Shown here: piece after piece, positions 6,103-38,031 of the stretch
How the letters are laid out: every line of letters starts with the position of its first letter
Position numbering within the stretch: the stretch's first letter is position 1
From: Phaeocystidibacter sp.
GTDB taxonomy: Bacteria > Bacteroidota > Bacteroidia > Flavobacteriales > Schleiferiaceae
Length of the DNA stretch: 64,000 nucleotides
Direction of reading: 5' to 3'
Assembly (NCBI GenBank): GCA_965659725.1
Contig: CBFHXG010000009.1
Span: forward strand, 1,391-65,390
Translations under genes and position numbers: made by a program
Notes under the pieces: model-generated
Database searches by the model: none
The model's input: only the letters and a program-made list of their open reading frames with translations
Told to the model about the DNA's origin: nothing

Positions 6103-6543
6103 TTATTTCTTTAGGCGCATTTCCAAGTACGGATTGGTGAAGCCCAGCTTTTCATATAATCCTTTGGCGGGGTTATCTGCGTCTACATGAAGAGCTATAT
6201 CACCTTCCGTTTTCTCGATTGCCTTCTTCATGAGTTCTGTCCCCAAGCCGGTACCTCGGTAATCGCTATGCGTCGCGATGTAAACGAGAATGTTTTCTGG
6301 AATGTATCCGCTCATGCCTGTTTTATTGAGAATCACGGCACCTTTAAGCACATCATCTTCTATCAATTCGAGCACGGTTCCACCTGGTGCTCCATTCTCG
6401 CCCAAGGCATAGTTCAATGCTTTGGTTATCTGGTCTTGAGGGTCGCCATATTTACCCAACTGTTCGTGCAAGAACTTCACGATGGAACGCTTCACACTTT
6501 CCGTAGGCCGATCATCTGGACTATAAGTGTTGATCTGTCTCAT
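6103..6543 (-). CDS. GNAT family N-acetyltransferase
   Basis: Acetyl-CoA motif A (YRGTGLGTELM) and motif B (NPAKGLYEKLGF). Confidence 0.9.
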   Translation of the reverse strand: MRQINTYSPDDRPTESVKRSIVKFLHEQLGKYGDPQDQITKALNYALGENGAPGGTVLELIEDDVLKGAVILNKTGMSGYIPENILVYIATHSDYRGTGLGTELMKKAIEKTEGDIALHVDADNPAKGLYEKLGFTNPYLEMRLKK

Positions 6544-6578
6544 GCAACTGTTTTAGTTTGATGGAGAGTATACAAAAA

Positions 6579-6634
6579 GATACGTTGATCTGTTTATCTG
6601 TTGATACGTTTATCCGTTTCTCTGTTCATCCGTT
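6579..6634. repeat. Seven-unit degenerate octamer array (NATCYGTT)
   Basis: gatacgtt gatctgtt tatctgtt gatacgtt tatccgtt tctctgtt catccgtt. Confidence 0.9.
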
Positions 6635-6661
6635 AGCTTGAACGAATTACGGTGGTGCTGA

Positions 6662-6870
6662 TCAAACCTAACTCGCCTTTCGATCAACGAGCGAGCCCTG
6701 AAGCCTTTTGGCCCTCTTGCCCCCTATCAAAGAATTCACGGGGATATTAAAGAATTGAGCCTTGATTGCCTCGACAGCCCTGGCAAGGTTCATCCGTTTA
6801 TCCGTTTTCTTGAACCCATAACGAGGACTATATTCAAACCTAACTCGCCATTCGATCAACGAGTGAGCCC
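6662..6870. repeat. Direct repeat pair, 37-bp core, period 172 bp
   Basis: 6662-6698 vs 6834-6870: tcaaacctaactcgcc(t/a)ttcgatcaacgag(c/t)gagccc, 35/37 identical. Confidence 0.95.
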
Positions 6871-6955
6871 CGGAGCCTCGGGGTCCTGGAGCCTTGGTGC
6901 CTTAGTCTTTTGGCCCAGTGGCCCTCTTGCCCCCCTTGCGCCTTTGCGTGAGGCC

Positions 6956-6983
6956 AAAAAAAACCCCAGCTTTCGCCAGGGTT
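6956..6983 (-). terminator. Intrinsic terminator of the rhodopsin gene
   Basis: Minus strand AACCCUGGC-GAAA-GCUGGGGUU followed by a U-tract. Confidence 0.85.
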
Positions 6984-7004
6984 CCAAATTAAAGTAAGCA
7001 GCTA

Positions 7005-7733
7005 TTACTTCTTACCGCTCGTCACGGCAATGTTGTATACTACAAGTCCGAATCCAATCTTATTGACCGCATCGGCGATGTTGTAGAAGAGGTCTACATT
7101 AGTAGACTCCCATCCCAAACCGACGTTCAGCCAACCCCCTGGCATACACATGTATCCGATTGGGTAGATCGCCCAACCCACGAGTACGAACCAAGCCAAG
7201 GTGCGTACACCTCTTTTCACGGTAGGGTCGCCAGAATTATCTGCCAATTTCTTCACCTCTCCTGCCCATGCAGAATAGAGTACATATACATAACCGATAG
7301 TAGAAAGCACACCCCAAGTTACAGAGTGACTAGTGCTTCCATCCGTAAAGGCTTCTCCAATGTAGCCCGTAACTAACATGAATGCTGAAGCAATAATGAG
7401 TTTCCACATTAAGCTTTTCTTGGCACCTGCAGGCTTCGTAAGCAAATAGAACTCCACACACATCAATGGCACCGTAAGAGTCCAATCGATGTACCTCAAC
7501 GCCGTTGGGTTCTCTCCAGTTGCCGTGTACACATCGCGCATGTAGTAATAATGCACTGCTGCGATGCCGGTAATTAGTCCAGAAACCAAGAGGGACGTCT
7601 TCCACTTGTCATCTACCCTACTTCTTTCGAAGAAGAAGAATACCGACGCGGCAAACATGGCCATGTAGCCCGTGAAAAACGTGAACGCTACGGGATCATC
7701 CTTTGGGATGGTCACAACATCTAATAAGTTCAT
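7005..7733 (-). CDS. Proteorhodopsin, DTE proton pump, probably green-absorbing (Met at PR105)
   Basis: Helix C RYIDWTLTVPLMCVE (D97/T101/E108), AVHYYYMR (His75), DAVNKIG (D227/K231); start at MNLLD. Confidence 0.95.
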   Translation of the reverse strand: MNLLDVVTIPKDDPVAFTFFTGYMAMFAASVFFFFERSRVDDKWKTSLLVSGLITGIAAVHYYYMRDVYTATGENPTALRYIDWTLTVPLMCVEFYLLTKPAGAKKSLMWKLIIASAFMLVTGYIGEAFTDGSTSHSVTWGVLSTIGYVYVLYSAWAGEVKKLADNSGDPTVKRGVRTLAWFVLVGWAIYPIGYMCMPGGWLNVGLGWESTNVDLFYNIADAVNKIGFGLVVYNIAVTSGKK

Positions 7734-8121: not shown

Positions 8122-8193
8122 TTCGATTCGATTTCGGCATTGAGATGACTTATATCATTCTCGATCCACGCACAGGCCTCGTACCTTTGTAGC

Positions 8194-12259: not shown

Positions 12260-13585
12260 ATGCTGATTCAAATTGCCCAGTTCTTGCTCGGGCTCTCCAT
12301 ATTGATCGTATTGCACGAGTTGGGCCATTTTATTCCGGCCAAGCTCTTCAAGACCCGCGTTGAGAAGTTCTATCTATTCTTTGATTACAAGTTCTCCATC
12401 TTGAAAAAGAAGATCGGAGGTACAACCTATGGGATCGGCTGGATTCCTCTCGGAGGTTACGTGAAGATCTCGGGAATGGTAGATGAAAGCATGGATACCG
12501 AAGGATTGATGAAGGATCCAGAGCCATGGGAATTCCGTGCGAAACCAGCTTGGCAAAGGTTGATCATCCTCACCGGTGGAGTGATCGTGAACTTCTTCTT
12601 GGCCTTTGTTATCTACGCCGGAATGATGTCCTACTACGGTGAATCTTTCATTCAAAATGAAGATCTAAAGTATGGTGTAACAGTAGGCGAAGGTCTTCAA
12701 CAGATCGGGCTTGAAAGTGGAGACAAGGTAATTAGCATTGGAGGAGAAAAGATCCAGCGTTACGGCGACCTTAATAAATCCATCATTGTTGGTTTGGGAG
12801 AAGAGATCGTTGTAGACCGCAATGGCCAATTGATGAGCTTCGTGATCAGCAATAAGTCGATCGGCGAAGTGATCAAATCTGAACAAATCCCTCTCACCCC
12901 ACGAATTCCATTCATCGTAGGTGGTGTGATCGACTCACTCGGTGCAGCGAAAGGCGGGATAGAGCCCGAAGACAGCATCGTAGCCGTCAATGATCAGCCG
13001 GCCATCTTTTTTGACCAATTCGTCGATCAAGCTCAAGCGAATAAGAACGATACTGTTGCTGTTTCCTACTACCGCAATGGAATGCTCGACACTTCAATGG
13101 TATTCTTCAATGAGGAGGGCTTGGCTGGCATCGCTCCGGTACGCGACCTGTACCGATTCTTTGATATTACAGATACCGTTTACTCTGGTACGGCGGCCAT
13201 GTCGGCCGGTTGGGGTAAAGCCACTTCACAATTGAGCTACTACATACGTCAATTTAGAGTGATCTTCAGTCCTGAAACGGGTGCTGCAGGCCAACTCGGA
13301 GGCTTCAAGACCATGATGGAGCAGTATGAGGATGGAAGGTGGAACTGGGAGCGCTTTTGGGGTGTAACGGCCTTCATTAGCATCATGCTTGGGTTCTTGA
13401 ACATCCTGCCTATTCCTGCCCTTGATGGTGGTCACGTTGTGTTCACACTCATCGAAATGTTCACCGGAAGGAAGCCTAATATGAAAGTGTTAGAATACGC
13501 CCAAATGATCGGATTCTTCCTGTTGTTGGGGCTATTGATCTTCGCTAACGGAAACGACTTTGGTTTGTGGGACGCATTTAAGTAG
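12260..13585 (+). CDS. rseP: RIP metalloprotease RseP
   Basis: HELGH, PLGGYVKI, two PDZ domains, NILPIPALDGG. Confidence 0.95.
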   Translation: MLIQIAQFLLGLSILIVLHELGHFIPAKLFKTRVEKFYLFFDYKFSILKKKIGGTTYGIGWIPLGGYVKISGMVDESMDTEGLMKDPEPWEFRAKPAWQRLIILTGGVIVNFFLAFVIYAGMMSYYGESFIQNEDLKYGVTVGEGLQQIGLESGDKVISIGGEKIQRYGDLNKSIIVGLGEEIVVDRNGQLMSFVISNKSIGEVIKSEQIPLTPRIPFIVGGVIDSLGAAKGGIEPEDSIVAVNDQPAIFFDQFVDQAQANKNDTVAVSYYRNGMLDTSMVFFNEEGLAGIAPVRDLYRFFDITDTVYSGTAAMSAGWGKATSQLSYYIRQFRVIFSPETGAAGQLGGFKTMMEQYEDGRWNWERFWGVTAFISIMLGFLNILPIPALDGGHVVFTLIEMFTGRKPNMKVLEYAQMIGFFLLLGLLIFANGNDFGLWDAFK

Positions 13586-14181: not shown

Positions 14182-15330
14182 TTACGGGTCTTGAGTGGCG
14201 ACGGCGATGAGAAAGTCGGCATCTTCCACTAGCAATGCCTCGCCATTCGCGCTTCTGAGGAGAAAAGAGCCTTTGATGTGTAGTTTGACAGTTGGACGAC
14301 CATTTAAGTCGTTTTGATATTCAGTTACTTCCTCAATAGTAATCGTTCCTGGGTCATGGTGTAGATCGGTCCTGAACACTTCTCCGAACTTGTCCGTATA
14401 CTCAACACGTACGGTATTCAACTGCATAGAGTCAACACGACTAAACGTATTCACCTCGTATCCAAAGTCTACGAGCGGAAGGGCCGGGCTGCCGTTCCCA
14501 AAATAGTCACGTACCGGAATCTCACGTGTTTGACACGTACGTCCGCCGCCATTGTGACGGAATGCAGCTTGAATGTCTACCTCAGCGCCATCCTCAGGGC
14601 TTGCCTTGTAGAGAAGGGTATCCCCTGTGCTGTTGTATTGATTATTTACATGCCAAAGCACCTGGGTTACATCACTCTGATACATTGGATCCAGATAACA
14701 TAGGAATGTACCGTTGGATAGAACCTCAACGTGATAGCTCGCTATGGCCTCAGGGTGACGAATATCCACACAACGGGAGGTTTCAATAAAGTCCACGTTA
14801 TTCGGTCGAATTCCGATAGTCACTACTGGCTGAACGCCGCTGTAATTCGTGCTATCGAATGGGAATGTTGGGCTTGGCTCCATCACCCTTCCACCAAACT
14901 GAAATCTCCAATAGTACTGCGGGTGAGTAGCGTCATCGGCTCCCAATACGATTCCCGGCTTGATCCCGATGAATCCATCCACTGGAACATAGGTAGTTAC
15001 CGCTTGAAGATTCTTTTCACCTAGGCTTAGAACCTCATACACGTCAACATTTTCGCCTTCTTCAGAATTGGCGAAACCAAATTTCCAAGACGGCTTTCCA
15101 ACTTCATTGGCATTGAGGTCGCCTACCATGTAAACGAGACCGTTCTCCATGGTATAGTCAGTATGCATGTAATAACCTTCATCACCGGCGGTCATAGAAA
15201 CTTCATTTCCATTCACCAATGCCGTTGCATGGAAGTCTGGATTAACATCCGATGGAGGTAGTGGAGCATCTTTGCGACAGCCCACGAGTGCTAAGACAGC
15301 AGCGATATATGTGATTACTCTGATCTTCAT
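14182..15330 (-). CDS. Hypothetical lipoprotein
   Basis: Lipobox LVGC; 4-nt overlap with the upstream gene. Confidence 0.75.
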   Translation of the reverse strand: MKIRVITYIAAVLALVGCRKDAPLPPSDVNPDFHATALVNGNEVSMTAGDEGYYMHTDYTMENGLVYMVGDLNANEVGKPSWKFGFANSEEGENVDVYEVLSLGEKNLQAVTTYVPVDGFIGIKPGIVLGADDATHPQYYWRFQFGGRVMEPSPTFPFDSTNYSGVQPVVTIGIRPNNVDFIETSRCVDIRHPEAIASYHVEVLSNGTFLCYLDPMYQSDVTQVLWHVNNQYNSTGDTLLYKASPEDGAEVDIQAAFRHNGGGRTCQTREIPVRDYFGNGSPALPLVDFGYEVNTFSRVDSMQLNTVRVEYTDKFGEVFRTDLHHDPGTITIEEVTEYQNDLNGRPTVKLHIKGSFLLRSANGEALLVEDADFLIAVATQDP

Positions 15331-16706
15331 AGTCCAAGCATATATCGAACACCCAATCGCAATTGGAGGTGTCTGTTCATTGATTCGGCCTGAGTGCTGA
15401 AGTTGTCATCAAGGCCCATAAGTGCTTGGGCGGTGATCCTCCAGTTTTCATTTACTCGGTAGGCGTAACCTAGCTGAAGACCATAGTCCCAGTTATCGGC
15501 TCCACCTTCCGTGATCACGGATCTATACTCTTCGGTTTGAGTTCCGTTATTCGTTTCAACTATGGATGACTCTGTAACTCCCACTTCGAGGAGTTTGTAT
15601 CCGACATATCCACCAAGTTCAAACTCATGGCTTTCAACCGCATACTGTAGGCTGATCGGCAATTCGAGGAAGCTGGTTGATCTGCTTACTGAAGTTCTTT
15701 CGATATACCTTGAGCCAAAGCCATAATCGAATGAGGTTTCTTTGATCTCCGCTCCAGAGCTTGATCTCTGTGAGTACATGAATCCAGAGCGAAGTGCAAG
15801 GTTTTCGGCAAAGGCGAACTCTACCGACAACCCACCATAGAATGCTGGAGTCCATCCGAGGTTGCCTTCTGAAACTTGAGCTGCTTGAGCACCTGCATCA
15901 AAACCTACGTTCCATTGTTGTACACGGTGACGAGGACGTTCGATTACTGCGTCAGATGATTCCGATGTAGTACTTTCTTCTGCGACCTCGATCTTCTCCT
16001 CGGTATCGGCGGTTTCTTCAGATGCATAATCAGCTGCGATAATTGCTGCTTCGCTTGATGTGATCGTTTCTACACTTCGGTTGGATACATCGCTTGAGCC
16101 CGACTCTTCAGATTCCGCGATCTGAGCGCTTTGGACTAAAACAACTTCTGAAAGTTGTGTTGTTTCTTGCTCTTCACGAGGGTTACTGGTAACGGGCTCT
16201 GCAGACTCCTCATCTACGCTTGCGTTGTACGAGTTACCTATCCCTTGATCCGCATAACTTCTATCAGAGTCTACTGAAGCTACGATACCTGCGGCGGCTT
16301 CGCTGCTTGACTCAGTTACATTATTGAGTTCGTCATTCTGGGATTGCAAACTGGTAGCACCTTCTGATGAGGATGGTCCATTGATCCCAAGGTTGTTAGC
16401 ATTGGCAGCATCCTCGATAGCAATGCTAGATGCGTCAACCTCGTTGCCTTCCGAATTGGATGGCCAGGCGATGATCTGCTCATTGGAAGGAGTGTACATT
16501 GGAGTATTGAAACCACTCCAAAGAGACACAGCCCCAAAGCCAATGAAGACGGCCGCGGTTGACCAAGCCATGATGGTACGTCGACGTTTGCGACGCTCAC
16601 CGGCAATAATCAGACGCTCCGCACCCTTCCAAGCTGCGGGGTTGAACTCGACGTTTCGTTCGTCGAATTTCTTCCGGAATAACTGTTCTAATTCCTTCTC
16701 CGTCAT
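15327..16706 (-). CDS. Putative anti-sigma-like protein: N-terminal TM anchor, acidic linker, C-terminal outer-membrane beta-barrel (PorT-like)
   Basis: Short N-terminal helix, RRKRRR then TM segment, S/E/A-rich linker, alternating beta-strands ending LRLGVRYMLGL. Confidence 0.7.
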   Translation of the reverse strand: MTEKELEQLFRKKFDERNVEFNPAAWKGAERLIIAGERRKRRRTIMAWSTAAVFIGFGAVSLWSGFNTPMYTPSNEQIIAWPSNSEGNEVDASSIAIEDAANANNLGINGPSSSEGATSLQSQNDELNNVTESSSEAAAGIVASVDSDRSYADQGIGNSYNASVDEESAEPVTSNPREEQETTQLSEVVLVQSAQIAESEESGSSDVSNRSVETITSSEAAIIAADYASEETADTEEKIEVAEESTTSESSDAVIERPRHRVQQWNVGFDAGAQAAQVSEGNLGWTPAFYGGLSVEFAFAENLALRSGFMYSQRSSSGAEIKETSFDYGFGSRYIERTSVSRSTSFLELPISLQYAVESHEFELGGYVGYKLLEVGVTESSIVETNNGTQTEEYRSVITEGGADNWDYGLQLGYAYRVNENWRITAQALMGLDDNFSTQAESMNRHLQLRLGVRYMLGL

Positions 16707-17266
16707 AACATTATACTCGCCACTTTAGTGACGAAGCCTTTCAACTTTTTTTTCAACGTTTTCCGTGCTGTGCTCAGGTGCCATTTAGAAGTACCTTCAC
16801 TGATGCCCAGCATCTCACCGATCTCTTTGTGATTGTATCCATCAATTACGTAGAGGTTGAAAACCTTCTGACTAACTGGTGGAAGATCACGAATCATCAT
16901 CTCCAACTCTTCTGCATCAAATTGACGGTCGGCCTCATTGTAATCCATCGAGGATACGGGCACATGACCTTCTAACTGATCGAAGAAAGCGTGACGATCC
17001 CTATTCTTCTTTCTGAACTCATCGATCACCGTGTTGATGGTAATGCGACGGATCCATGCCTCAAAAGGGGTTTCGTCGTGATATTTATCTAATCGAGTTA
17101 GGATCTTGTAAAAAGCGAGATTTAGCAGTTCTTCTGCATCCTCTTTGTTCTTCTCGTAACGAAGGCAAACCCCCATCAAGATCCCATAACAGCTACGATA
17201 TAACTCGAATTGAGCCGAGCGCTCGTGCTTTCTGCATCTGGATATGAGTTCTTTACTTATCTGCAT
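16703..17266 (-). CDS. ECF sigma-70 factor
   Basis: AQFELY, DAEELLNLAF, FEAWIRRI.IN and VFNLYVIDGY.HKEI..MLGISEGTSK motifs; start at MQISK. Confidence 0.95.
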   Translation of the reverse strand: MQISKELISRCRKHERSAQFELYRSCYGILMGVCLRYEKNKEDAEELLNLAFYKILTRLDKYHDETPFEAWIRRITINTVIDEFRKKNRDRHAFFDQLEGHVPVSSMDYNEADRQFDAEELEMMIRDLPPVSQKVFNLYVIDGYNHKEIGEMLGISEGTSKWHLSTARKTLKKKLKGFVTKVASIML

Positions 17267-17405
17267 CTCATCGTTAAAAGAAAATCCGGAGATCCAATGT
17301 ACGTAATCGACATAGATCTCCGGATCATCGAACAATCCACCTACTGAACAACTAACCTAACTTTTGTTCTGTATTAAAGGTCTCGGAGACTCTTTTCTAA
17401 TTGTA

Positions 17406-17431
17406 TAGACGGCGCCTCGACCAAAAGGGTT
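17406..17431 (-). promoter_or_regulatory. Candidate ECF-type autoregulatory promoter
   Basis: Minus strand AAC-N17-CGTCTA, matching the general ECF -35 AAC / -10 CGT pattern. Confidence 0.6.
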
Positions 17432-17524
17432 GGTATCACTCTAAAAAAATTTTCACTTTTTTCTCTATACGAGGAAATTGGATATGTGGTGGGCTGAAAA
17501 AGTGATCGTCATTTTCTATCTTCA

Positions 17525-22176: not shown

Positions 22177-25100
22177 CTAGTGGATTACCGTTACCCAACC
22201 TCTCTTCTCGTATTCAGCCGAGGTGAACACCCAAACATAGGTGTCTTCCTTAACCTTCACTCCATCTCCACGGGTTCCATCCCAGAACTCGTTGAACGGA
22301 TCATGTGAGCTGAATACTAAGTTACCCCAACGATCGAAGATCTGGAATCTCGATGGCCCAATACATTCACTACCTACGATCTTGTACTTCTCATTGATCA
22401 TGTCTTCATTTGGCGTGAAGGCATTCGGAATGTGGAGATACTCTTGATCCTCATCTACACCCACATAAATGTAGAATGTACTGTCGCAACCCAACGCATC
22501 CGCGATGGTCAATTCGTGAGAACCTGGACGAATATCTTCCTTCGTTCCAGAGAACAGTTGTCCGTCAAAGTAGAATGAATACGGCGGAGTTCCACCCGAC
22601 ACATCGAGGTCTACATAACCGTCATTCGAAGTAGGACAAGTAGCAAAATCTACTGTAATTCCCGTTTCGATAGGCTCATTCTCAACAACCTCAACCGTGT
22701 CTTCGATTCTACATCCATTAGCATCTATCACCGTGTATGCATACTTACCTACACCCAGGTTGCCAATGTTCATTCCCGATTGACCGTGGCTCCACGTAAC
22801 CACGTATGGAGGAGTTCCACCAAATGGGTTGATATTCGCGCTTCCGCTATTGGCACCACCACAATTGATCCCGATAACATCTTCAACGGTTCCCAAGTCC
22901 TGATTAGGACCAGTGATGTCTACACTATCCGTCTTGTAACAACCCATGGCATCCGTAACAACTACGCCATATCTACCCACTGGTAGGCCTACTGCAGTAT
23001 CCCCTTGATGACCATTGGACCATACCACGTTGTACGGAGGAGTACCTCCAACAAGGTTGACGTGGGCAATACCATCGGCCTCGCCATAGCACATCACCGG
23101 TGTCAACATATTGGCTGCCGCCGATAGATCACGATTCGGTTCTGTAACGTTTCCACTCACCGTAACGGAACATCCGTTTGCATCGGTAATGGTAACCGTA
23201 TACTGACCAGCTAGCAAGTAGTTAAGTGTGTCGGTGGTAGCTCCGTTTGACCAAGACACTTGATACGGTGGAGTACCGCCCGTGTAATTGGTGTAGACAG
23301 ATCCGTTGGCATCTCCTTTACAGAATACATTCTGAATGATGTTCACGTTGGCTGTGATTGGAGAATTCGGTTCAGTAATAACCACCGTAGTGCTATCCGT
23401 ACATCCGTTGGCATCTGTAACAACGGCTGTATAGGACCCCGTGCTTACCTGACTCAATGTGTCATTGGTAGAGCCGTTCGACCAAGAGACATTGTAAGGT
23501 GCAGTACCTCCATTGATCTGGACATACGCCCATCCATCGTTACCACCGAAGCAAGATACATTCTGGATAAATCCATTGGCTGCATTCAGGGATCCCGAAG
23601 GTTGATTAATGGTTATCGAAATTGAATCGGTACATCCGTTCGCATCCGTAACCGTGGCTACATAGGTTCCCGCAGCAAGATTGCTAGCCGTAGTTCCCGC
23701 TTGTCCATTATTCCAGTTGATGGTGTACGGTGAAGTGCCTCCAGTGACTGAGATCGTAGCAAAACCATCTAGCCCGTTAAAACAGTTCACATGGCCTGTG
23801 GCAGTTGGTGTCACTGCAATTCCAGAAGCTGGTTGAGATACACTCACACTATGAGTTGTGTTACATCCACTGGCATCGGTTACCGTTACCGTATATGTTC
23901 CGGCCGTCACTCCCGCTAGATTAGCTGTAGTTGCACCATTTGACCAAGCATAGGTAAAAGGCGCTGTTCCGCCAGTAACATTAATCATCACTGCACCATC
24001 CGATCCGCCGAAGCAATTCACGTCTGTGATAGAGTTCGTGCTAACGGAGATACCGCTAGTTGGCTGGTTGATCGTTACGCTAGCCGTTGCCGTACACCCA
24101 TTGACATCGGTAATTGTTACCGAGTACGTACCCGCGCTAAGGTTACTGACAGTTGCGGTAGTGGCACCATTCGACCATGCATAGGTGTACGGAGACGTTC
24201 CGCCTCCCGGAGTAGCACTAGCCGATCCAGTAGCACCGCCAAAGCAATTCACATGACTTAGTACACCCGCCGAAGCACTCAGCGCATTCGACGGTCCATT
24301 GATGGTGATCGACCCAGATACCACACATCCGTTAGCATCCGTCACCGTCACTGTGTACGTTCCAGTAGCAAGTCCACTGATGTTGGCAGACGTTGCACCA
24401 TTCGACCAGTTGTAGGTATATGGAGCCGTTCCACCTGATACGTTCGCCGCACCTGCACCGGAATTAGAGCCAAAACATGAAACGTGATTAGAAACCACTG
24501 CATTCAATGTCAAGGCCGAAGCCGGCTGGGTGATTACAACAGACTGACTCGTGGTACATCCGTTGGCATCGGTTATTACAACCGTGTACGTACCTGCGGT
24601 GATGTTAGAGATCGTGTCTGTAGTTTGACCCGAGTTCCAAAGCACGCTATAAGGAGCCGTGCCGCCAGAGTAAGTAACATACGCCTCACCAGTCGCTCCG
24701 CCGAAGCATGTAACTTGACTTACAATAGTGGAGGTGCTCGTCAATGCACTACCAGGTTGATTTAGCGTCACATTTGCTGTAGACGTACATCCGTTGGCGT
24801 CTGTCACAGTTACGGTATACGTACCCGCAGCAACGTTAGAGATGGTTGCACCAGTTGCACCATTACTCCATGCATAGGTATATGGAGCCGTGCCGCCTGA
24901 ACCTCCGGCTGTTGCCGTGCCTGTAGAGGCTCCAAAACAATTGATATCCGTAGAGCTAAGGATCGCAACACTCAAAGCGCTAGCCGGCTGTGTGATCACC
25001 ACTGTGGCGGTATCCGAACAACCGTTAGCATCCGTGATGGTTACGGTATATGAACCTGCCGTCAATCCTGTTTGATTGGCACCAATGGCACCGTTGCTCC

Positions 25101-28100
25101 AAGCATACGTGTAAGGAGATGTTCCGCCACTTCCTGTTGCCGTTGCAGATCCTGTTGATCCACCGAAGCAAGCAACGTTAGCGTTCACCGTTGCTGATAC
25201 GTTCAAGGCTGAACTAGGTTCAGTGATCGTTACTGTTTCCGTTGTGGTACATCCGTTCGCATCCGCGATGGTCACAGTATAGGTGCCCGCGATCAAGTTG
25301 TTGATGGTATCCGTAGTGGCACCACTGCTCCAGCTAACACTGTAAGGTGCTGTTCCGCCTGTGTATGTGATATAGGCTAATCCATTATTTCCACCGAAGC
25401 AGCTCACATTCTGAATCACTGCACTCGTGCTGGTAAGTGCCGCTGATGGTTGAGTGATGTTCACACTCAATGTATCGGTACATCCATTCGCATCCGTTAC
25501 AGTAAGGCTATACGTTCCCGCCACCAAGTTGGTGAGGTTTGCCGTTGATGCGCCATTGCTCCATGCATATGTGTATGGTGCCGTCCCACCCGAAGTATTC
25601 ACTTGGATCGAACCGGTAGAGTTGCCGAAGCAATCTACATTCTGACTAGCGATCAGCGATACGCTCAAGGCAGATGCCGGTTGAGTGATGATCACGCTAT
25701 CCATATCAAAACAACCATTCGCATCGGTGATGGTCACAACATACTGACCGGCAGATAGTGCGTTGATAGTAGGTGTGTTTGCACCGTTGCTCCAAGCAAA
25801 CGTGTAAGGAGATGTTCCGCCTGTAGCTGTAGCTGTTGCCGATCCAGTAGGCACTCCAAAACAACTCACGTTTGAATTGATAGCTGCAGATGCATCCAAA
25901 GCACTCGCTGGTTGAGTGATAACCACTGAATCCGAAGCTGAACAACCATTGGCATCTGTGATAATAACAGAATAGGTGCCCGCTGGGATATTCACGATGG
26001 TATCAGACAACCCACCGTTGCTCCATGCAACTGAATAAGGAGGCGTTCCACCAGTGTAGGATACGTGAGCGTTGGCATCACTTCCACCGTAACAGCTCAC
26101 ATTATTGATCACGTTGGTGTTCAAGCTGATGGCAGTAGCGGGTTGGGTAATGGTTACGGTACTACTATCCGTACAACCATTCGCATCTGTAGCAACCACG
26201 GTGTAGACACCTGCCACTAATCCTGTTGCGGTCGCGGTAGTCTGCCCATCGCTCCATGCATACGTGTATGGTGCCGTACCTCCCGTTGTTGTTGCTGTTG
26301 CCGAGCCATTGCTTCCACCGAAACAACTCACATTCGAGTTCACGATGGCACTCACGTTCAATGCGGTTGCTGGTTGACCGATGTTCACTCCGGCGGTAAC
26401 CTGACATCCATTGCTATCGGTTACAGTAACCACATAGCTTCCGGCTGCAAGCGCACTCACCGTATCGCCGCTCATGCCATTACTCCAACTATAGGTATAT
26501 GGTCCGTCACCTCCAGAGGCAACCGCATACGCTACGCCATCGCTTCTGCCAAAGCAGTTCACGGCACTCAATTGAGCGACGGAAAGCGTAAGTGCAGTTG
26601 CTGGTTGAGTGATGGTAACAGAAATACTATCCTGACAACCATTGTCATCGGTAACGGTAACGGTATAACGTCCGGCAGCTAGACCAGAAGCTAGAGGCAC
26701 AGAAGGACCATGGTCCCAGTCGAAACTGTACGGAGGAGTACCTCCGATAGCAGAGGCTAGGATCGCTCCATCGGCACCTCCTAAACAGCTCACGTTATTG
26801 AGAACATTAATCTGAATGCTAATGGCAGAATCAGGTTGGGTCATGGTTACGTGAGCCGTATCCATACATCCATTTGCATCAACTACAGTAACGATATACA
26901 GTCCTGTATCCAGATTGAATGCCGTGTTACCTGTTTGACCATCGCTCCACGTATAGGTATACGGAGGTGTACCACCTGTGGCAGAAGCTGTCGCATATCC
27001 GTCAGATCCACCAAAACAGTTCACTGGGAAAAGAACGGACGCACTTGCATCTACTGCAGAGGCAGGTTCGCCAATGGTCACATAAGCGGTATCGGAACAA
27101 CCAAGGCTGTCTACCACCGCAACAGAATGCGTACCGGCAGATAAGTTAATGGCGGTAGCTGTTGTTTCACCGTTACTCCACAAATAGGTATATGGCGCAG
27201 TGCCACCTTGGGCAAACACATTAGCTGATCCGTCCGATCCACCGATACAGCTGACCTGACCCAGGAGTGTCATAGTAAGCATGATATCTTGAGGAGGCGA
27301 ACTAATAGTAACGTTAGCAGTAACATCACAACCGAGTGAATCGGTTACGGTAACTGAATAGATTCCAGGCGTAAGTCCAGTAGCTGTATCCGTAGTTTGA
27401 CCATCGCTCCATACATAGGTGAATGGTGGGATGCCGTTCGTTACGGTAACAGTGGCGGTACCATCGGCACCACCGAAACAGCTGGTAGTGGTCAATGCCA
27501 CACCAGAGGCGAAAATATCGCTGGCTGGCTGCGTGATCACGACTGAAACGAGATCTTGACAACCCAATGAATCCGTAACGAGTACAGCGTATGTTCCAGC
27601 GGTAAGACCTATTGCGGTATCGCCGGTTTGACCATCACTCCAAGAGTATGTATACGGAGGTGTACCACCCGTTGCATTCGCCCAAGCAGATCCGTCCGAT
27701 CCACCGAAGCAAGTAATAGTATTCACCACCACTCCACTCACAGAAACGGGAGCTGAAGGCTGTGTGATGCGCACACGAGCCGTATCGCTACAACCATTGG
27801 CGTCTGTTACGGTAACGGTGTACCACTGGGCGCTCAGACCCGTAGCTGTGGCTCCACTCGCACCGGTACTCCATAGATATGTATACGGTGCCGTTCCGCC
27901 TGAGGCGCTAGCTGTAGCTTGACCATCATTTCCACCGAAGCAAGATACACTTGCGATCATCGATGCAGATGCCGTGATGCGCGTGGCCGGTTGAGTAACT
28001 GTAACCGCAGCTGTATCTGTACATCCGTTCGCATCGGTTACAATAACGGTGTGTGTTCCGGCCCAGAATCCTGTAGCGGTACGTGTGGTTTGTCCATTGC

Positions 28101-31100
28101 TCCACAAGTACGTATAAGGCGAGGTACCACCCGATGCCGTGGCACGTGCGGTGGCCGTTGAATCTCCAAAGCACAGAACGTTTGTCAATACTGAAGCTCC
28201 ACCCGAAACTGCTGTGCTTGGCTCATCGATAACAATTTGAGCAGTAGCCGTACATCCATTCGAATCCGTAACGGTAACTGTGTGTGTTCCAGCAGTCAAT
28301 GCGATTGTCGTATCCGTTGTTTCACCATTGCTCCATGAGAAGGTATATGGGGGAGTACCACCAGACCCGCTTGCGACAGCGGAACCGTCAGACCCTCCTA
28401 AACAAGACACATCATTTACAAGAGCCGTGGCCGCGGCCACCGCAGTTGGTTGAGTAATAGTAACACTCTCCGTGATGCTACACCCCATGCTGTCTGTAAT
28501 GGTAACCGTGTATGTGCCGATTGCAATCCCCGTAATCGTGTCATTGGTAGATCCCGTGCTCCATAGGTACGTGTATCCACCCCATCCACCAGTCGCGGTA
28601 ACGTATGCCGTTCCATCGCTGGCACCAAAACATGAGATGGTCATGGCATCGATCGCCGATGCTGAAAGTGGTGCACTCGGACCAGGAATAGTGATGTTCG
28701 CGGCATCCGTACATCCTCTGGCATCCGTTACGGTCACCACGTAGGTTGATTGAGCTAGGCCAAAAGCAGAATCACCGGATTGACCATTGCTCCAAGCATA
28801 GGTATAGGGTGGCGTACCACCCGATCCAGCAACAGTAGCCCAGCCATCTGTACTTCCCACACAAGAAACACCCGTAATCTGAACTGCATTTACGTCTGTA
28901 GCAACCGCTGGCTCAGTGATCACAACAGAGGCTGTATCCTGACAACCCAATGAGTCGGTTACGATAACCGTATGTGCTCCAGCTGGTAAGCCTGTTGCAA
29001 TGGCCGAAGTTTGACCATTACTCCACGAGAAAGTATACGGCGGCGTTCCACCCATTGCACTGGCTGATGCCTCACCATCGGCACCGCCAACGCAAGAAAC
29101 AGAAGTGTCCATTTGAGCACTTGCCGCTACTGCAGTAGCTGGTTCTGTGATGGTAACGGTATCCATAACCTGACACCCGTTGCTGTCTGTCACAGTAACA
29201 TAGTGGTCGCCAGCAGCTAAGCCAGTAGCCGTTGCAGAGGTTTGTCCGTCGGTCCAAGCAAATGTGTAAGGAGGTGTGCCTCCAGATCCACTTACTGATG
29301 CCGAACCATCGGCACCGCCAAAGCAACTTACATTGTTTACTACCGAAGTTGAAGAGGTTACCGGGTCTGGTTCATCAATCGTGATCGAGCTAGTTGAAGA
29401 ACAACCAAGACTATCCACTACATAGACCAAATATTGACCTGCAGGAACTCCAGAAAGTGTGTCTCCCGTATGCCCTGTACTCCAAGAAATAATGTACGGA
29501 GGGTTTCCGCCTGAGGCAACACCGTATAGCACGCCGTCACTTGATCCATTACAAGGGATCTCGCCAATGATCGTTGCAGAAACCGCCAGGTCAACACTTG
29601 GTGGCGGAACGTCAAGGGTGTCAGTAGCCTGACATCCGTTGGAGTCTGTTACTGTCAACACGATCTGTCCACCACCTAATCCGGTTACCGTATCGTTAGC
29701 CGTTCCATTATTCCATGTGTAGGTGTAAGGAGCTGTTCCGCCCGAAGCAGTACCGTAAGCAGATCCATCCAAGAAGCCTCCACAAGTTGGAGCAGAGATC
29801 AAGGTGGCTGTGGCTGAAAGCGCTGAAGCAGGCTGCGTGATGGTTACATGGGCTGAATCTTGACAGCCATTTGCGTCGGTCATGATCACGTAATATCCAC
29901 CAGGCACAAGACCAGTAGCTATCTGTCCAGTTTGACCATCGCTCCACAAGTAGGTATAAGGAGTTACTCCACCTGAGCCGATCGCTTCTGCCGTACCGTC
30001 TGACCCTCCAAAACAGTTCACATCCGTTTTTGATATGATGGCCGCCAAAGGCATGGAAGGTTGAGTAATTGTAGCTGTATCGAACTCCGCACATCCGTTA
30101 GCATCCGTGATTTGAACCCAATAGGTTCCGGTGGCTAGTCCTGAGATGCTTTGAGTAGTTGCACCTGTATTCCATGCGTACGAATAAGGAGGAACTCCTC
30201 CAGTAGGCATTACAGAAGCCGTACCATCGTTCGCTCCAAAACAAGTGACGTTCGTAAAGTTGAGGTTCTCTACAAGTGGATCCGGTTCAGTAACCACAAC
30301 CGTGTTCGTATCGGTACAACCCATAGAGTCAGTTACCGTAACAATATAAGAACCAGCCGTAATGCCAGTTATAGTATCACCGGTCATGCCATTGCTCCAG
30401 CTGAAGGTGTAAGGAGGCGCCCCTCCAGTAGCTGATGCATATGCAATACCATCGCTACCGCCGGCACAGGTTATTGCATTTCCGTCTACAGCACCCACGA
30501 GTAACTCGAATGGGGCCTCGAAAATATTTACTGTGTCAATGTCGGTACAACCATTAGCATCGGTAACGATCAAGATGTAATCACCTCCTGCAAGACCATT
30601 GATATTTGCACCTGTCATGCCATTGCTCCAAGAGTACATGTAAGGCGGAGTACCTCCAGTTGCGGTTGCGGTAGCCGCACCATCTAAATCACCTCTACAA
30701 GTTACGCCCACTGTACTCGAAGTGCCGGCCTGAAGTGCAGCGGCAGGCTGAGTGATGGTAACGTTGATTGAATCTTCACAACCATTTGCGTCGGTGACCA
30801 CCACCGTATGTGTTCCAGCTGTTAAGTCGGTTACTACAGCGGTTGTTTGTCCGGAAGACCATAGATAGGTATAAGGAGAAAACCCTCCGCTTACCGTTAC
30901 AGTTGCTTCACCCGCTGCCTCTCCAAAGCAAAGAACGTTCGAATCCACATTTGCAGATACATTTAATGCGGTTGGCTCAGTAAGCGTGAACACGGCTGTA
31001 TCGATACATCCATTCGCATCAGTCACCGTTGCTGTATACGTTCCAGCAACTAGGTTCTGGATGGTATCCGTAGAAGCGCCATTCGACCAAGAAATGGTGT

Positions 31101-33456
31101 ACGGCGATGTTCCGCCCGTGATATCAACATAACCCGAACCATCCGAATCACCATTACAAAGAATGGCATTGATGATAGAGGCCGCAGCCACGAGTTCAGC
31201 ATTTGGTTCTTCGATAGTAACCGTTGCAGAATCTTCACAACCATTGGCATCGGTGACGATAACGCTATATGTACCACCGCTCAACCCAACGTTCGCTGTA
31301 TCTGTAACTCCATTACTCCATTCAAAATCATAGGGTGGAGTTCCTCCTGTTGCGGCTGCAACTGCTGATCCATCTCCATCTCCAAAGCAGAGAACATCTG
31401 TTGAATCCGTGATGGTCACCACAAGAGGTGTTGCCGGCTCAGTGATCGTTACATTAGCAGAGTCGATACATCCATTCGCATCGGTTACCACGACCGAATA
31501 GGTTCCGGCCGGAACTTGAATCGAATTAGTAGTATCACCTGTGTTCCAAAGAATGGAGTAAGGGACGGTACCACCGGATATCTGAACAGTGGCTACACCA
31601 TCCGCTTCACCAAAACATGAAACGGCTGATGTCATTACTCCAATAGCGGCAAGCGCAGAGTCTGGCTGCGTGATAGTCAATGAAAGTGTATCAGTACAAC
31701 CTACACTGTCAGTTATGATAACGGTGTGGCTTCCAGCAGGAAGACCAATAGCAGTATCGCTGGTTTCTCCATTACTCCAAAGGTAGGTGTACGGTGACGT
31801 TCCACCTGAGCCTACTACCACGCCTACACCATCAGATCCTCCGAAACAGGATACAGGCGCTTCCGCAATGGTCAACCCTCCTACAGGCTGAGCAGGTTCT
31901 GTTATAGTTACTTCCAATGAATCGGCACAACCGTTGGCATCGGTTACAACAACGGAATAGGTTCCCGCAACAAGGTTATTACGAGCACTGTCGGTATTTC
32001 CATCGTTCCAAAGAAGCGAATATGGAGGTATGCCCCCAGTAATGAGTAGATCGACTTGACCCGTACTATCGCCAAAACAGAGGATAGGAACCTGATTGTC
32101 GATCACCACTTCAAGTGGAGATGCTGGTTGAACCAGGTCGATGGTAACTGAATCAGTACAACCATTGGCGTCAACTACGGTGAGGGAGTAACTCCCCGCT
32201 CCCATTCCATTGAGCGTATCGTGTATTGCACCCGTATTCCAAGAGAAGGCATATGGCGGAGTACCCCCAGTGGCAAAGCCAGCGAGCTGTCCGTTAAGAT
32301 CACCGAAACAATCTATACTATCTAATATATCTATGTTGGCTATGAGGGAATCGGGTTCCGTGACCGTCACACTGACAGTATCGGTACAACCACCACCGCT
32401 TGTGATATAGATCTCGTAGGTGCCGGCAGACAAACCATAAACGGTATCGCTTGTGGCGCCATTGGACCATAGATAGGTTGTTGGTGGAGCTCCACCCCAT
32501 ACATCAACCCATGCCCAACCGTCGGTATCACCATGACAACTAACCTGACTTCCTTGCTCGGCGATGGCCCAGCCACAACCGCCCAAAGTGAAAACAGGAG
32601 TACTATCAGTGATAGCGATAAATACACTATCTGGGTCGGTAAAGAGATTGTCATTTACACCACCAATATCGGAAGCAGCCCCACCTAAGGCAGAGCTTGC
32701 AGAAGAAGCAGTGGCAAAGATCATTCGGATAGAATCGTTCGGATTGATACCGAGACTATCGAATGGAACGTAGAAATCGAGGAATACTGGATCGTTCTTC
32801 CAACAGTTGGTGTATCCAGCATGGGATCTTTGAGAGTGGGTCGATCCTGGATAAGTAGATAGTTGCGTACCTGTAGTGGTGCCATCTACGTCCATGATCG
32901 AAACCGATCCTTGGCCCGCGGTACCATAGATGATCTCAAGCTCGAATCCAGGGTTACCTGTTACGGCGTTGGGGTCGGCCGTTGCTCCGGTAAAGCCAAT
33001 ACGGTTATCGGTATCGATCAAAAAACTAAACCCGTATGCGCCCGTTACGTTGCGTGCAATGCGGATCCTATACATAAGGAATTCGTCTCCGTTTCCAGGA
33101 GTTCCATCTTGATCACCTAAATACCAATAACCTGCACTCATTGGGTAGTTAGGATTGTCTACGATCTCGGACTTACCGCAATCGTTACCGGTTAGGAGGT
33201 CGGCAGGGGGTTCGGCAGAAAGGTGGAACATTGGAATCATCGGATACTCAAAGTCGAACGACTCATCGATCACCACGGAGGTATCAATAGCACCTCCAGA
33301 TGCGGATATCCACCCATCACTATTAGGGTCGAGTACCGTACCTGGACTACTTTGGTAGATACTACCGATCTGCTGACTCCATCCAAAGAATGAAATTAGG
33401 AGAAGAGTAATAAGCCACACGCGCCGTTTGCAGGGAAGCGAGTAGAGGCTTGCCAT
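22177..33456 (-). CDS. Giant T9SS type B (CHU_C) adhesin with about 44 SprB-type repeats
   Basis: About 76-aa repeats V.C.GG.DG...GGT.PY.Y.WS.G...VTD.NGC (44 counted by eye); C-terminal IPNAFTPN.D..N; probable start MASLY at 33456. Confidence 0.9.
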   Translation of the reverse strand: MASLYSLPCKRRVWLITLLLISFFGWSQQIGSIYQSSPGTVLDPNSDGWISASGGAIDTSVVIDESFDFEYPMIPMFHLSAEPPADLLTGNDCGKSEIVDNPNYPMSAGYWYLGDQDGTPGNGDEFLMYRIRIARNVTGAYGFSFLIDTDNRIGFTGATADPNAVTGNPGFELEIIYGTAGQGSVSIMDVDGTTTGTQLSTYPGSTHSQRSHAGYTNCWKNDPVFLDFYVPFDSLGINPNDSIRMIFATASSASSALGGAASDIGGVNDNLFTDPDSVFIAITDSTPVFTLGGCGWAIAEQGSQVSCHGDTDGWAWVDVWGGAPPTTYLWSNGATSDTVYGLSAGTYEIYITSGGGCTDTVSVTVTEPDSLIANIDILDSIDCFGDLNGQLAGFATGGTPPYAFSWNTGAIHDTLNGMGAGSYSLTVVDANGCTDSVTIDLVQPASPLEVVIDNQVPILCFGDSTGQVDLLITGGIPPYSLLWNDGNTDSARNNLVAGTYSVVVTDANGCADSLEVTITEPAQPVGGLTIAEAPVSCFGGSDGVGVVVGSGGTSPYTYLWSNGETSDTAIGLPAGSHTVIITDSVGCTDTLSLTITQPDSALAAIGVMTSAVSCFGEADGVATVQISGGTVPYSILWNTGDTTNSIQVPAGTYSVVVTDANGCIDSANVTITEPATPLVVTITDSTDVLCFGDGDGSAVAAATGGTPPYDFEWSNGVTDTANVGLSGGTYSVIVTDANGCEDSATVTIEEPNAELVAAASIINAILCNGDSDGSGYVDITGGTSPYTISWSNGASTDTIQNLVAGTYTATVTDANGCIDTAVFTLTEPTALNVSANVDSNVLCFGEAAGEATVTVSGGFSPYTYLWSSGQTTAVVTDLTAGTHTVVVTDANGCEDSINVTITQPAAALQAGTSSTVGVTCRGDLDGAATATATGGTPPYMYSWSNGMTGANINGLAGGDYILIVTDANGCTDIDTVNIFEAPFELLVGAVDGNAITCAGGSDGIAYASATGGAPPYTFSWSNGMTGDTITGITAGSYIVTVTDSMGCTDTNTVVVTEPDPLVENLNFTNVTCFGANDGTASVMPTGGVPPYSYAWNTGATTQSISGLATGTYWVQITDANGCAEFDTATITQPSMPLAAIISKTDVNCFGGSDGTAEAIGSGGVTPYTYLWSDGQTGQIATGLVPGGYYVIMTDANGCQDSAHVTITQPASALSATATLISAPTCGGFLDGSAYGTASGGTAPYTYTWNNGTANDTVTGLGGGQIVLTVTDSNGCQATDTLDVPPPSVDLAVSATIIGEIPCNGSSDGVLYGVASGGNPPYIISWSTGHTGDTLSGVPAGQYLVYVVDSLGCSSTSSITIDEPDPVTSSTSVVNNVSCFGGADGSASVSGSGGTPPYTFAWTDGQTSATATGLAAGDHYVTVTDSNGCQVMDTVTITEPATAVAASAQMDTSVSCVGGADGEASASAMGGTPPYTFSWSNGQTSAIATGLPAGAHTVIVTDSLGCQDTASVVITEPAVATDVNAVQITGVSCVGSTDGWATVAGSGGTPPYTYAWSNGQSGDSAFGLAQSTYVVTVTDARGCTDAANITIPGPSAPLSASAIDAMTISCFGASDGTAYVTATGGWGGYTYLWSTGSTNDTITGIAIGTYTVTITDSMGCSITESVTITQPTAVAAATALVNDVSCLGGSDGSAVASGSGGTPPYTFSWSNGETTDTTIALTAGTHTVTVTDSNGCTATAQIVIDEPSTAVSGGASVLTNVLCFGDSTATARATASGGTSPYTYLWSNGQTTRTATGFWAGTHTVIVTDANGCTDTAAVTVTQPATRITASASMIASVSCFGGNDGQATASASGGTAPYTYLWSTGASGATATGLSAQWYTVTVTDANGCSDTARVRITQPSAPVSVSGVVVNTITCFGGSDGSAWANATGGTPPYTYSWSDGQTGDTAIGLTAGTYAVLVTDSLGCQDLVSVVITQPASDIFASGVALTTTSCFGGADGTATVTVTNGIPPFTYVWSDGQTTDTATGLTPGIYSVTVTDSLGCDVTANVTISSPPQDIMLTMTLLGQVSCIGGSDGSANVFAQGGTAPYTYLWSNGETTATAINLSAGTHSVAVVDSLGCSDTAYVTIGEPASAVDASASVLFPVNCFGGSDGYATASATGGTPPYTYTWSDGQTGNTAFNLDTGLYIVTVVDANGCMDTAHVTMTQPDSAISIQINVLNNVSCLGGADGAILASAIGGTPPYSFDWDHGPSVPLASGLAAGRYTVTVTDDNGCQDSISVTITQPATALTLSVAQLSAVNCFGRSDGVAYAVASGGDGPYTYSWSNGMSGDTVSALAAGSYVVTVTDSNGCQVTAGVNIGQPATALNVSAIVNSNVSCFGGSNGSATATTTGGTAPYTYAWSDGQTTATATGLVAGVYTVVATDANGCTDSSTVTITQPATAISLNTNVINNVSCYGGSDANAHVSYTGGTPPYSVAWSNGGLSDTIVNIPAGTYSVIITDANGCSASDSVVITQPASALDASAAINSNVSCFGVPTGSATATATGGTSPYTFAWSNGANTPTINALSAGQYVVTITDANGCFDMDSVIITQPASALSVSLIASQNVDCFGNSTGSIQVNTSGGTAPYTYAWSNGASTANLTNLVAGTYSLTVTDANGCTDTLSVNITQPSAALTSTSAVIQNVSCFGGNNGLAYITYTGGTAPYSVSWSSGATTDTINNLIAGTYTVTIADANGCTTTETVTITEPSSALNVSATVNANVACFGGSTGSATATGSGGTSPYTYAWSNGAIGANQTGLTAGSYTVTITDANGCSDTATVVITQPASALSVAILSSTDINCFGASTGTATAGGSGGTAPYTYAWSNGATGATISNVAAGTYTVTVTDANGCTSTANVTLNQPGSALTSTSTIVSQVTCFGGATGEAYVTYSGGTAPYSVLWNSGQTTDTISNITAGTYTVVITDANGCTTSQSVVITQPASALTLNAVVSNHVSCFGSNSGAGAANVSGGTAPYTYNWSNGATSANISGLATGTYTVTVTDANGCVVSGSITINGPSNALSASAGVLSHVNCFGGATGSASATPGGGTSPYTYAWSNGATTATVSNLSAGTYSVTITDVNGCTATASVTINQPTSGISVSTNSITDVNCFGGSDGAVMINVTGGTAPFTYAWSNGATTANLAGVTAGTYTVTVTDASGCNTTHSVSVSQPASGIAVTPTATGHVNCFNGLDGFATISVTGGTSPYTINWNNGQAGTTASNLAAGTYVATVTDANGCTDSISITINQPSGSLNAANGFIQNVSCFGGNDGWAYVQINGGTAPYNVSWSNGSTNDTLSQVSTGSYTAVVTDANGCTDSTTVVITEPNSPITANVNIIQNVFCKGDANGSVYTNYTGGTPPYQVSWSNGATTDTLNYLLAGQYTVTITDANGCSVTVSGNVTEPNRDLSAAANMLTPVMCYGEADGIAHVNLVGGTPPYNVVWSNGHQGDTAVGLPVGRYGVVVTDAMGCYKTDSVDITGPNQDLGTVEDVIGINCGGANSGSANINPFGGTPPYVVTWSHGQSGMNIGNLGVGKYAYTVIDANGCRIEDTVEVVENEPIETGITVDFATCPTSNDGYVDLDVSGGTPPYSFYFDGQLFSGTKEDIRPGSHELTIADALGCDSTFYIYVGVDEDQEYLHIPNAFTPNEDMINEKYKIVGSECIGPSRFQIFDRWGNLVFSSHDPFNEFWDGTRGDGVKVKEDTYVWVFTSAEYEKRGWVTVIH

Positions 33457-33640
33457 AGTTACTTGTTTTTGGTCTCTATATTTTTTTATCGCCCTTCGCA
33501 TAAGTTTACTTCAGGACAACTAGTCAAAGCTACACCACTCTAAATCACGAAGTTGTACACCCTTTCCGACATTCTATTCTGACTATTAAAGTAGAATTCG
33601 AGGCCAGTTGCTTAATTTACTGCATACTAACTACGAGTCA

Positions 33641-38020: not shown

Positions 38021-38031
38021 GTGAAGGGAGT

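Follow-up and report, generated by a model that had tools for sequence, protein, structure and literature searches.

In Phaeocystidibacter sp. contig CBFHXG010000009.1 (assembly GCA_965659725.1), two minus-strand genes, for a GNAT acetyltransferase and a rhodopsin, are separated by 461 nt, most of which is taken up by a two-unit repeat element, the units of which we named U1 and U2; all coordinates refer to the 64,000-nt stretch of that contig that was analysed, hereafter the window. By comparison with metagenomic contigs, U1 and U2 were shown to be adjacent, old, and diverged members of a low-copy, non-coding, modular repeat family that occupies about ten loci per genome, and the family appears, as far as seen, to be confined to one uncultured marine Bacteroidota (Flavobacteriales-like) lineage. 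Bacterial interspersed mosaic repeats are a known class, and the element is a new, lineage-specific case of it. The explanation we favor, with a probability of roughly 0.5, is that a dispersed mosaic repeat family of this kind also has a promoter or transcript function.

A dispersed family around a centre of fixed length

U1 and U2 lie head to tail, 172 nt apart, and are 75% identical over 100 nt. Working left to right on the plus strand, each consists of an AT-rich octamer array, the left box CTTGAAC (6637-6643 in U1, with its counterpart at 6809-6815 in U2; 6635-6643 and 6807-6815 when written as NN plus CTTGAAC), an 18-nt segment (6644-6661, GAATTACGGTGGTGCTGA, and 6816-6833, CCATAACGAGGACTATAT), a 37-nt core (6662-6698 and 6834-6870), and a GC-rich octamer array. 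A first-pass annotation of the window had described these parts, and all of them are present. The contrast it drew between a conserved core and a variable 18-nt segment was also confirmed, the cores being identical at 35/37 positions and the adjoining segments at 7/18 (Fisher p = 1.5e-5). A 30-nt core pattern matched twice in the window, both matches being the units themselves, against 0.00 expected. Both cores contain the palindrome CTCGC-CWT-TCG-ATCAA-CGA-GYGAG, which fits the 20-40 nt imperfect palindrome typical of REP, BIME, and REPIN elements; in U1 it reads CTCGC-CTT-TCG-ATCAA-CGA-GCGAG (6672-6695, imperfect) and follows a TCAAAC box. The two-unit form is not an assembly artefact, because an independent 1197-nt contig from another sample (X2) spans both units, covering 6342-7200 with six mismatches and one gap.

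Other copies of the family were sought by placing Logan contigs of marine metagenomes on the region, the readable flanks of the copies being 30 nt. Contigs from four marine metagenomes match only 6580-6634, 6667-6708, or 6787-6875 at 80-90% identity and then continue into unrelated DNA; over 6667-6708, the core region, the contigs from other loci are 82-88% identical. At least 12 distinct copies away from the U1/U2 locus could be told apart in the marine Logan contigs. The depth of the other-copy contigs equals that of the U1/U2 locus (20-21.8 versus 17.7-19.5 in sample X4, 25.5-31.7 versus 23.2-34.3 in X10, and 12.4-13.2 versus 14.1 in X16), and they are therefore single-copy loci of the same genome, roughly 6-12 in number. 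Ten copies besides U1 and U2 were reconstructed from joint letters and loose ends, one of them representing this locus in the related X16 strain. The distance from the AAC of the left box to the TAACTCG of the core is exactly 25 nt in 12 copies, and two further copies, C8 and C9, are apparently off by 1 nt; the flanking arrays, unlike this centre, vary freely in length. The 25-nt segments of the 12 copies align without gaps (consensus gCATAACgAagaggcTAATCAacCC; pairwise identity 8-21 of 25, or 32-84%), and AAC is retained in 11/12 of the reconstructed copies. Overall, the family unit is a central module of about 75 bp, comprising (T/A)TGAAC, 25 nt, and TAACTCG-N5-CGATCAACGAG-N-GAGCC, flanked on one side by an AT-rich octamer array (NATCCGTT)n and on the other by a GC-rich octamer/9-mer array (YTGGRGCC)n; YTGGRGCC-like arrays are also borne by other copies. 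Cores occur in tandem at other loci too, about 114 nt and about 950 nt apart.

The least informative columns of the alignment, 9-15, fall inside the stretch that had been annotated as variable. The alignment shows that the "variable" 18 nt belong to a homologous segment, of which they are the columns under least constraint, and are not foreign spacers, at least as judged from the copies reconstructed, and the first-pass treatment of these stretches as unrelated sequence does not stand, given their gap-free alignment across the family. Two subfamilies can be distinguished, an AGTTGGKT-type that includes U1 and a GAAGAGTCTAA-type that includes U2. Even within the locus the segment changes, the U2 18-nt segment having four differences in a strain of ~97% nucleotide identity.

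Because U1 and U2 fall into different subfamilies, the pair is not a fresh tandem duplication. A decayed local duplication of ~172 bp would account for two head-to-tail units of that spacing and 75% identity; we nevertheless consider it very improbable, as the core and the left module recur at many other loci, U2 is nearer to copies C4, C11, and C14 (17/25) than to U1 (14/25), and the divergence between the units is strongly non-uniform. The first-pass annotation had likewise argued against simple decay of a duplication, and the recurrence of the core elsewhere, with the 25-nt length kept in 12 copies, bears this out. It had named a core restricted to this locus and an unconserved segment length as outcomes that would count against its own proposals; on both points the result went the other way.

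Conserved repeats around a variable stretch of fixed length had also been read as a miniature repeat-spacer array or an emptied mobile cassette. Clustered regularly interspaced short palindromic repeat (CRISPR) arrays consist of identical direct repeats of 23-55 nt and unique, foreign-derived spacers of similar length. The element resembles them in having conserved repeat units and a fixed-length variable stretch, but it has only two units at the locus and lacks the repeat-spacer-repeat order: the two 37-nt cores are 172 nt apart, the 135 nt between them are themselves repeats, and the 18-nt segment sits between two different flanks, CTTGAAC and the core, rather than between two identical repeats. 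The supposed spacers are homologous to one another across copies and have no protospacers. Neither 18-nt segment has a self match in the window (GAATTACGGTGGTGCTGA has no second match there allowing up to three mismatches); in IMG/VR, GAATTACGGTGGTGCTGA gave only bare 18-mers at chance level and CCATAACGAGGACTATAT gave no match. Phage records contained no match to the element, and in plasmid records the sole hit, to a Streptomyces plasmid, was a weak one of 52 nt at chance level (E = 2e-3) that covers the AT-rich array. The proposed comparison of the segments with phage and self sequence thus yielded nothing above chance in IMG/VR, phages, plasmids, or the window. Gene context was scanned with Pfam on the 16 open reading frames (ORFs) between 84 and 19744; no Cas domains, no intI gene, and no integrase or transposase were found among them. 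For an integron cassette, ACCTAAC, read from the sequence, does fit the attC R'' consensus RYYYAAC; it has no complementary GTTRRRY partner (R') and there are no inverted repeats. CRISPR array and integron cassette (attC) were both rejected, the former on its homologous segments in two subfamilies, its missing protospacers, and the lack of nearby cas genes, and the latter on its unpaired R'', the lack of inverted repeats, and the lack of an integrase in the scanned ORFs; taken together, we regard an origin of either kind as scarcely credible. The emptied-cassette proposal fails on the same grounds, including the lack of terminal inverted repeats.

Within the window, sensitive blastn found no family copy besides U1 and U2, and extension past both window ends, which added ~15 kb (contigs L022 and L024), revealed no further one. 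Among 185,579 species genomes, core patterns matched once, within a coding region of a Planctomycetota genome; in JGI metagenomes they matched nine times without flanking similarity, and in IMG/VR twice, by chance. Either the family is not in the genome, metagenome, and viral collections searched, or its members there are too diverged for exact patterns. A composite of open-frame translations used as a query for other copies gave no candidate.

Arrays, alleles, and the selfish-repeat alternative

The octamer arrays that had been annotated are real. The AT-rich array of U1 (6579-6634, plus strand) comprises seven NATCYGTT units with a lag-8 match of 0.73, a value equalled by 0/5000 shuffles, and Tandem Repeats Finder reported periods of 8, 16, and 24 for it; read on the minus strand, it is (AACRGATN)n and stops 36 nt before the GNAT start codon. 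Its U2 counterpart (6789-6808, plus strand) has about 2.5 units. The GC-rich array of U2 (6864-6950, plus strand), with 11 units including some 9-mers, was missed by Tandem Repeats Finder, but its lag-8 match of 0.62 was reached by 0/5000 shuffles; that of U1 (6692-6725, plus strand), which has four units and overlaps the end of the core at its start, also scores 0.62, reached by 3/5000 shuffles. A collagen-like or coding origin of the GC-rich array was considered and rejected, the period being 8-9 nt, the frames broken, and protein matches lacking; a full HMMER search with a spurious 80-amino acid ORF matched only low-complexity Ig-repeat proteins.

Two further components, both absent from the first-pass description, lie between the units. 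The first is a 32-nt AT-rich insert between the arrays (6726-6757), containing a 12-nt direct repeat (TATCAAAGAATT and TATTAAAGAATT), and the second is a 9-mer array with a weak inverted repeat (6757-6788; GCCTTGATT GCCTCGACA GCCCTGGCA AGG). The insert is missing from family copy C7, where the 9-mer array directly follows the core; counted by eye, the 9-mer array and the right flank of C7 are identical at 26/30 positions.

Three alleles were recovered at the locus. The U1+U2 form is found in the window, in the 1197-nt contig from X2, and in L005. The second allele, in ENA scaffold L030, is an exact 172-nt core-to-core deletion that joins U1 to the right-hand array of U2; Logan contig L031 probably carries the same deletion, although the seven bases that it has beyond the junction suit a slightly different join. 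The third, from a strain of ~97% nucleotide identity, has a single U2-like unit in which 6597 is joined to 6788 via 10 other bases. The arrays differ as well: the U1 AT-rich array is 8 nt shorter in L029 and 8 nt longer, after 6596, in X19, and one extra GCCTCGACA (9 nt) is present in the 9-mer array of L005 and X4. From these comparisons, array lengths are shown to differ between strains in whole-unit steps, as expected of replication slippage, and whole units of the element to be lost through recombination between cores or between arrays. At core positions 6850 and 6864, the only two at which U1 and U2 differ, the X16 strain carries the U1 bases, which hints at gene conversion. On the alleles compared, then, the changes at the locus are those of slippage and homologous recombination, and none needs transposition; each recovered allele retains at least one unit, and recombination, whether core-to-core or array-to-array, accounts for the one-unit alleles.

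The repeat also affects assembly. All Logan contigs reached via the two flanking genes end within it, and in at least eight independent marine assemblies (L001-L010 and L024-L033, from Logan and ENA) contigs stop inside 6700-6900. A 1119-nt contig from X13 is identical to 6883-7200 and joined at 6883 to unrelated sequence (..AAAGCAACGGGGGT), being either a fourth allele or a chimeric join through a GC-octamer array. The repeat family systematically fragments short-read assemblies of the lineage; conversely, array length and unit number are usable as strain markers.

A selfish or neutral dispersed repeat, similar to REP/BIME, BOX, or miniature inverted-repeat transposable elements (MITEs), in which the promoter-like boxes described below are coincidental and the palindromic core and fixed length are needed by a trans-acting recombinase or transposase or by a DNA-binding host protein, is a possible explanation, if on balance a doubtful one. 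The family is intergenic, dispersed, restricted to one lineage (it was not found in the 185,579 species genomes or the JGI metagenomes), and modular with variable internal repeat numbers; its most conserved part is an imperfect palindrome, the number of units differs between strains (2, 1, or 1), and the promoter-like box is degenerate in about half of the copies. However, the repeat search over 6500-7010 gave no inverted pairs, so the terminal inverted repeats of a MITE are lacking, no clean empty site or target-site duplication was seen, and no transposase, integrase, or RAYT gene lies within ~10 kb. An active MITE or REPIN population would look different, the copies here being few in number and, at 32-84% identity in the 25-nt segment, old; the strain differences just described are not those of transposition. 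Finally, indels are common in the flanks but kept out of the centre, which suggests ongoing constraint.

BOX elements of Streptococcus pneumoniae and enterobacterial BIME/REP sequences occur in tens to hundreds of copies with strong palindromes, and REPs are associated with a RAYT transposase. Like them, the family is intergenic, dispersed, modular, variable in sub-repeat number, lineage-specific, and furnished with a short imperfect palindrome, and like many of them the element lies near gene ends and terminators. It differs in having only about ten copies, a weak palindrome, and flanks of 8-nt microsatellite; its ~6-12 copies and direct tandem units also depart from the copy numbers and inverted pairs of REP, BIME, and REPIN families (REPINs are described in PMC3116915). 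A further likeness, useful only as a lead, is to the cyanobacterial short tandemly repeated repetitive (STRR) heptamer arrays and small dispersed repeats reportedly treated by Elhai et al. in 2008, where short intergenic arrays, their unit length not divisible by three, accompany small dispersed conserved elements. The phylum, the sequences, and the unit (7 versus 8-9 nt) are different, and no nested-insertion signature was seen in the element.

Promoter-like boxes and a putative transcript

The fixed length of the centre would be explained if the module acts through sequence boxes that need fixed spacing, and most likely the module would then be a portable promoter or small-transcript unit. 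On the plus strand of both units, GAAC-N18-TCAAAC has the geometry of sigma-E sequences, with the AT-rich array upstream; the AAC of the left box would occupy the -35-like position and the TCAAAC of the core the -10-like one. GAAC-N18-TCAAA occurs four times in the window, two of these being the units, versus 0.96 expected. The Escherichia coli sigma-E promoter is GGAACTT-N16-TCAAA with an AT-rich UP region (PMC1312014). Read on the minus strand, the same bases as TCAAAC form TAGGTTTG (6670-6663 in U1 and 6842-6835 in U2), a perfect match to TAnnTTTG, the -7 box of Bacteroidota sigma-A (PMC9723704), facing the GNAT gene. In the window, 18/31 TAnnTTTG matches are intergenic, a ~5-fold enrichment (3.5 expected, with intergenic DNA making up 11% of the total), and for 11 matches a gene on the same strand starts no more than 200 nt downstream; going by this distribution, TAnnTTTG is a working signal in the host organism. 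Many of the boxes (e.g., those at 8182, 9710, 19762, and 19815) are only 4-25 nt from the start codon. Taken at face value, such short distances imply very short or absent 5' leaders in the host.

Two versions of a promoter reading can be put forward, both included in the overall probability and each, taken singly, rather unlikely. On the plus strand, the element would be an extracytoplasmic function (ECF) promoter of sigma-E geometry with the AT-rich array upstream, in which the 18-nt segment, fixed in length and free in sequence, would serve as the promoter spacer and a short RNA would begin with the hairpin core; such a transcript would be conserved in its 5' portion and diverse in its 3' portion. 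On the minus strand, TAGGTTTG would be a sigma-A -7 box directed towards GNAT, with the core palindrome as an upstream operator. What the family shares with the sigma-E (PMC1312014) and sigma-A (PMC9723704) promoters is two boxes separated by a spacer of fixed length and variable sequence; the differences are that the flavobacterial ECF motif is of the CGT type, that the minus-strand box lacks the usual -33 TTG, and that the box is present in only part of the family.

Several observations weigh against a promoter or transcript function. Of 15 copies, only ~5 have an intact TCAAAC/TAGGTTTG box and two or three more come near the consensus; TCAA is present in ~7/15. Flavobacterial ECF promoters described so far carry a CGT -10 element (PMC9723704), and the window's own ECF sigma gene has an AAC-N17-CGTC site, not TCAAA. 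A terminator scan of the plus strand found none after either unit, and no plus-strand gene follows. On the minus strand, the upstream DNA is GC-rich and a TTG lies 14 nt from the box, versus the ~19-21 nt expected of a -33 TTG, although the other TAnnTTTG boxes in the window are also mostly without one; the distances from the two boxes to the GNAT ATG, 119 and 291 nt, compare with the 4-76 nt typical in the window. Family copy C7 was found inside a 529-nt contig of a run labelled "RNA?"; the two such runs are, however, low-complexity Nextera libraries whose contigs are single duplicated inserts with no strand information, and these contigs also cover sequence upstream of the putative plus-strand start.

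The ECF sigma factor just mentioned is encoded on the minus strand (16703-17266) within 15327-17440, followed by an outer-membrane beta-barrel protein gene. Upstream of it, on the minus strand, CCAACC (17433-17428), 17 nt, and CGTC (17411-17408) resemble a flavobacterial ECF promoter of the CGT type, and a 12-bp inverted repeat (ATCCGGAGATC..GATCTCCGGAT) lies between this site and the ATG. A link between the element and this gene was considered and dropped, because the 10-mer they share, ATACCAACCC, is at chance level and the gene's own site has a CGTC -10. An RseP-like site-2 protease (Peptidase_M50 and PDZ domains) is encoded at 12260-13585 on the plus strand. Proteases of the RseP type activate sigma-E-type ECF factors in other bacteria.

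A structured non-coding RNA family, either small RNA (sRNA) or cis-regulatory leader, in which the fold fixes the length and the variable segment forms a loop or seed, had also been suggested. A length that is fixed despite variable sequence would suit such a family, as would the small hairpin shared by the cores (CTCGC..GCGAG, which in the U2 and C7 variants keeps its pairing only as G-U on the plus strand) and a GGTTCA/TGAACC pair able to close the octamer array into a loop. The annotated TTGA..TCAA and CTCG..CGAG pairings are indeed present, but they are weak as hairpins; the TTGA/TCAA stem, of 4-5 bp, would enclose an 18-nt loop, and several copies have lost it. On both strands, the folding energies of the 71-nt centres (z = -0.33, -1.58, -0.05, and +0.19) and of the whole gap (z = -0.95 and -1.64) do not improve on those of shuffled sequence. 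Rfam gave no match in the element region at E-values up to 10; at that setting there were only terminator-type partial matches nearby at 6955-7046 and a weak chance match at 6557-6627 (E = 3.9), and no matches at the gathering score across the window, in which ARAGORN found no tRNA or tmRNA. With only the short palindromic core hairpin shared, a structured RNA family was not upheld and seems unlikely.

The nearest known parallel to the favored combination of dispersed repeat and promoter is FopS, the "family of paralogous sRNAs" of Bacteroides thetaiotaomicron, a multicopy family in which each member has its own promoter; the FopS RNAs are proven transcripts of 65-70 nt with sigma-A promoters and terminators (PMC11697453). 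The two belong to the same phylum, are made up of dispersed paralogous non-coding units (~12-15 per genome in FopS), and consist of a conserved block followed by a diverse part, as would the transcript of the plus-strand version. The FopS promoter lies inside the conserved alignment, whereas that of the present family is putative; the family also differs in its flanking octamer arrays and tandem units, and the likeness is one of organisation.

Locus, host lineage, and implications

The GNAT gene (6103-6543, minus strand) lies downstream of the element on the minus strand and the rhodopsin gene (7005-7733, minus strand) upstream, the latter ending in an intrinsic terminator (6956-6981, minus strand; CCCTGGC-GAAA-GCTGGGG followed by T8) that is outside the repeat. 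The minus strand continues past these genes with a sodium:solute symporter and then an alanine-racemase-fold gene. The window also encodes proteins with type IX secretion system (T9SS) tails, the ECF sigma factor, which is of the Bacteroidota type, and a PF05635 four-helix-bundle protein. Runs holding the locus are mainly marine metagenomes, with a few labelled lake water; those carrying the lineage include ERR12166947-58, ERR13395282, ERR15116848, and ERR4674074, together with assembly ERZ23491561. Named GNAT homologues come mostly from Flavobacteriaceae and Weeksellaceae metagenome-assembled genomes, which suggests a marine host of Flavobacteriales-like affinity. Beyond the 99% cluster, GNAT homologues reach no more than 63-65% identity, and the DNA upstream of these nearest ones is unrelated; by these comparisons, the host lineage stands alone among the sequences now available.

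Another octamer array, (AGGGTGTT)x6, which is cleaner and has a Tandem Repeats Finder score of 84, lies at 38025-38073 (context 37364-38545), in the divergent gap upstream of the PF05635 "23S rRNA intervening-sequence" four-helix-bundle gene (38141-38545, plus strand), and octamer microsatellites may be a general habit of the host genome. A 3774-amino acid ORF with many repeated domains (22177-33501, minus strand) is probably a T9SS-type surface adhesin; its repeats gave chance octamer-pattern matches at 23395, 23626, and 28015.

As it stands, the element enlarges the bacterial catalogue by one lineage-specific family of interspersed repeats and has only modest practical consequences. Should the promoter or sRNA reading be true, it would represent regulatory DNA spreading as a cassette in uncultured marine Bacteroidota and, outside gut Bacteroides, the first multicopy family of sRNAs or promoters comparable with FopS. 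In its fullest form, an improbable one on present sequence data, the family would be a set of about ten portable regulatory cassettes, each a promoter with a short conserved RNA or leader, in which the octamer arrays tune or phase-vary output and the subfamily "address" segments give specificities, with one tandem pair next to the proteorhodopsin gene of a marine flavobacterium that is abundant but uncultured. A segment that is locked in length but free in sequence is, in addition, a clean natural experiment on spacing constraint.

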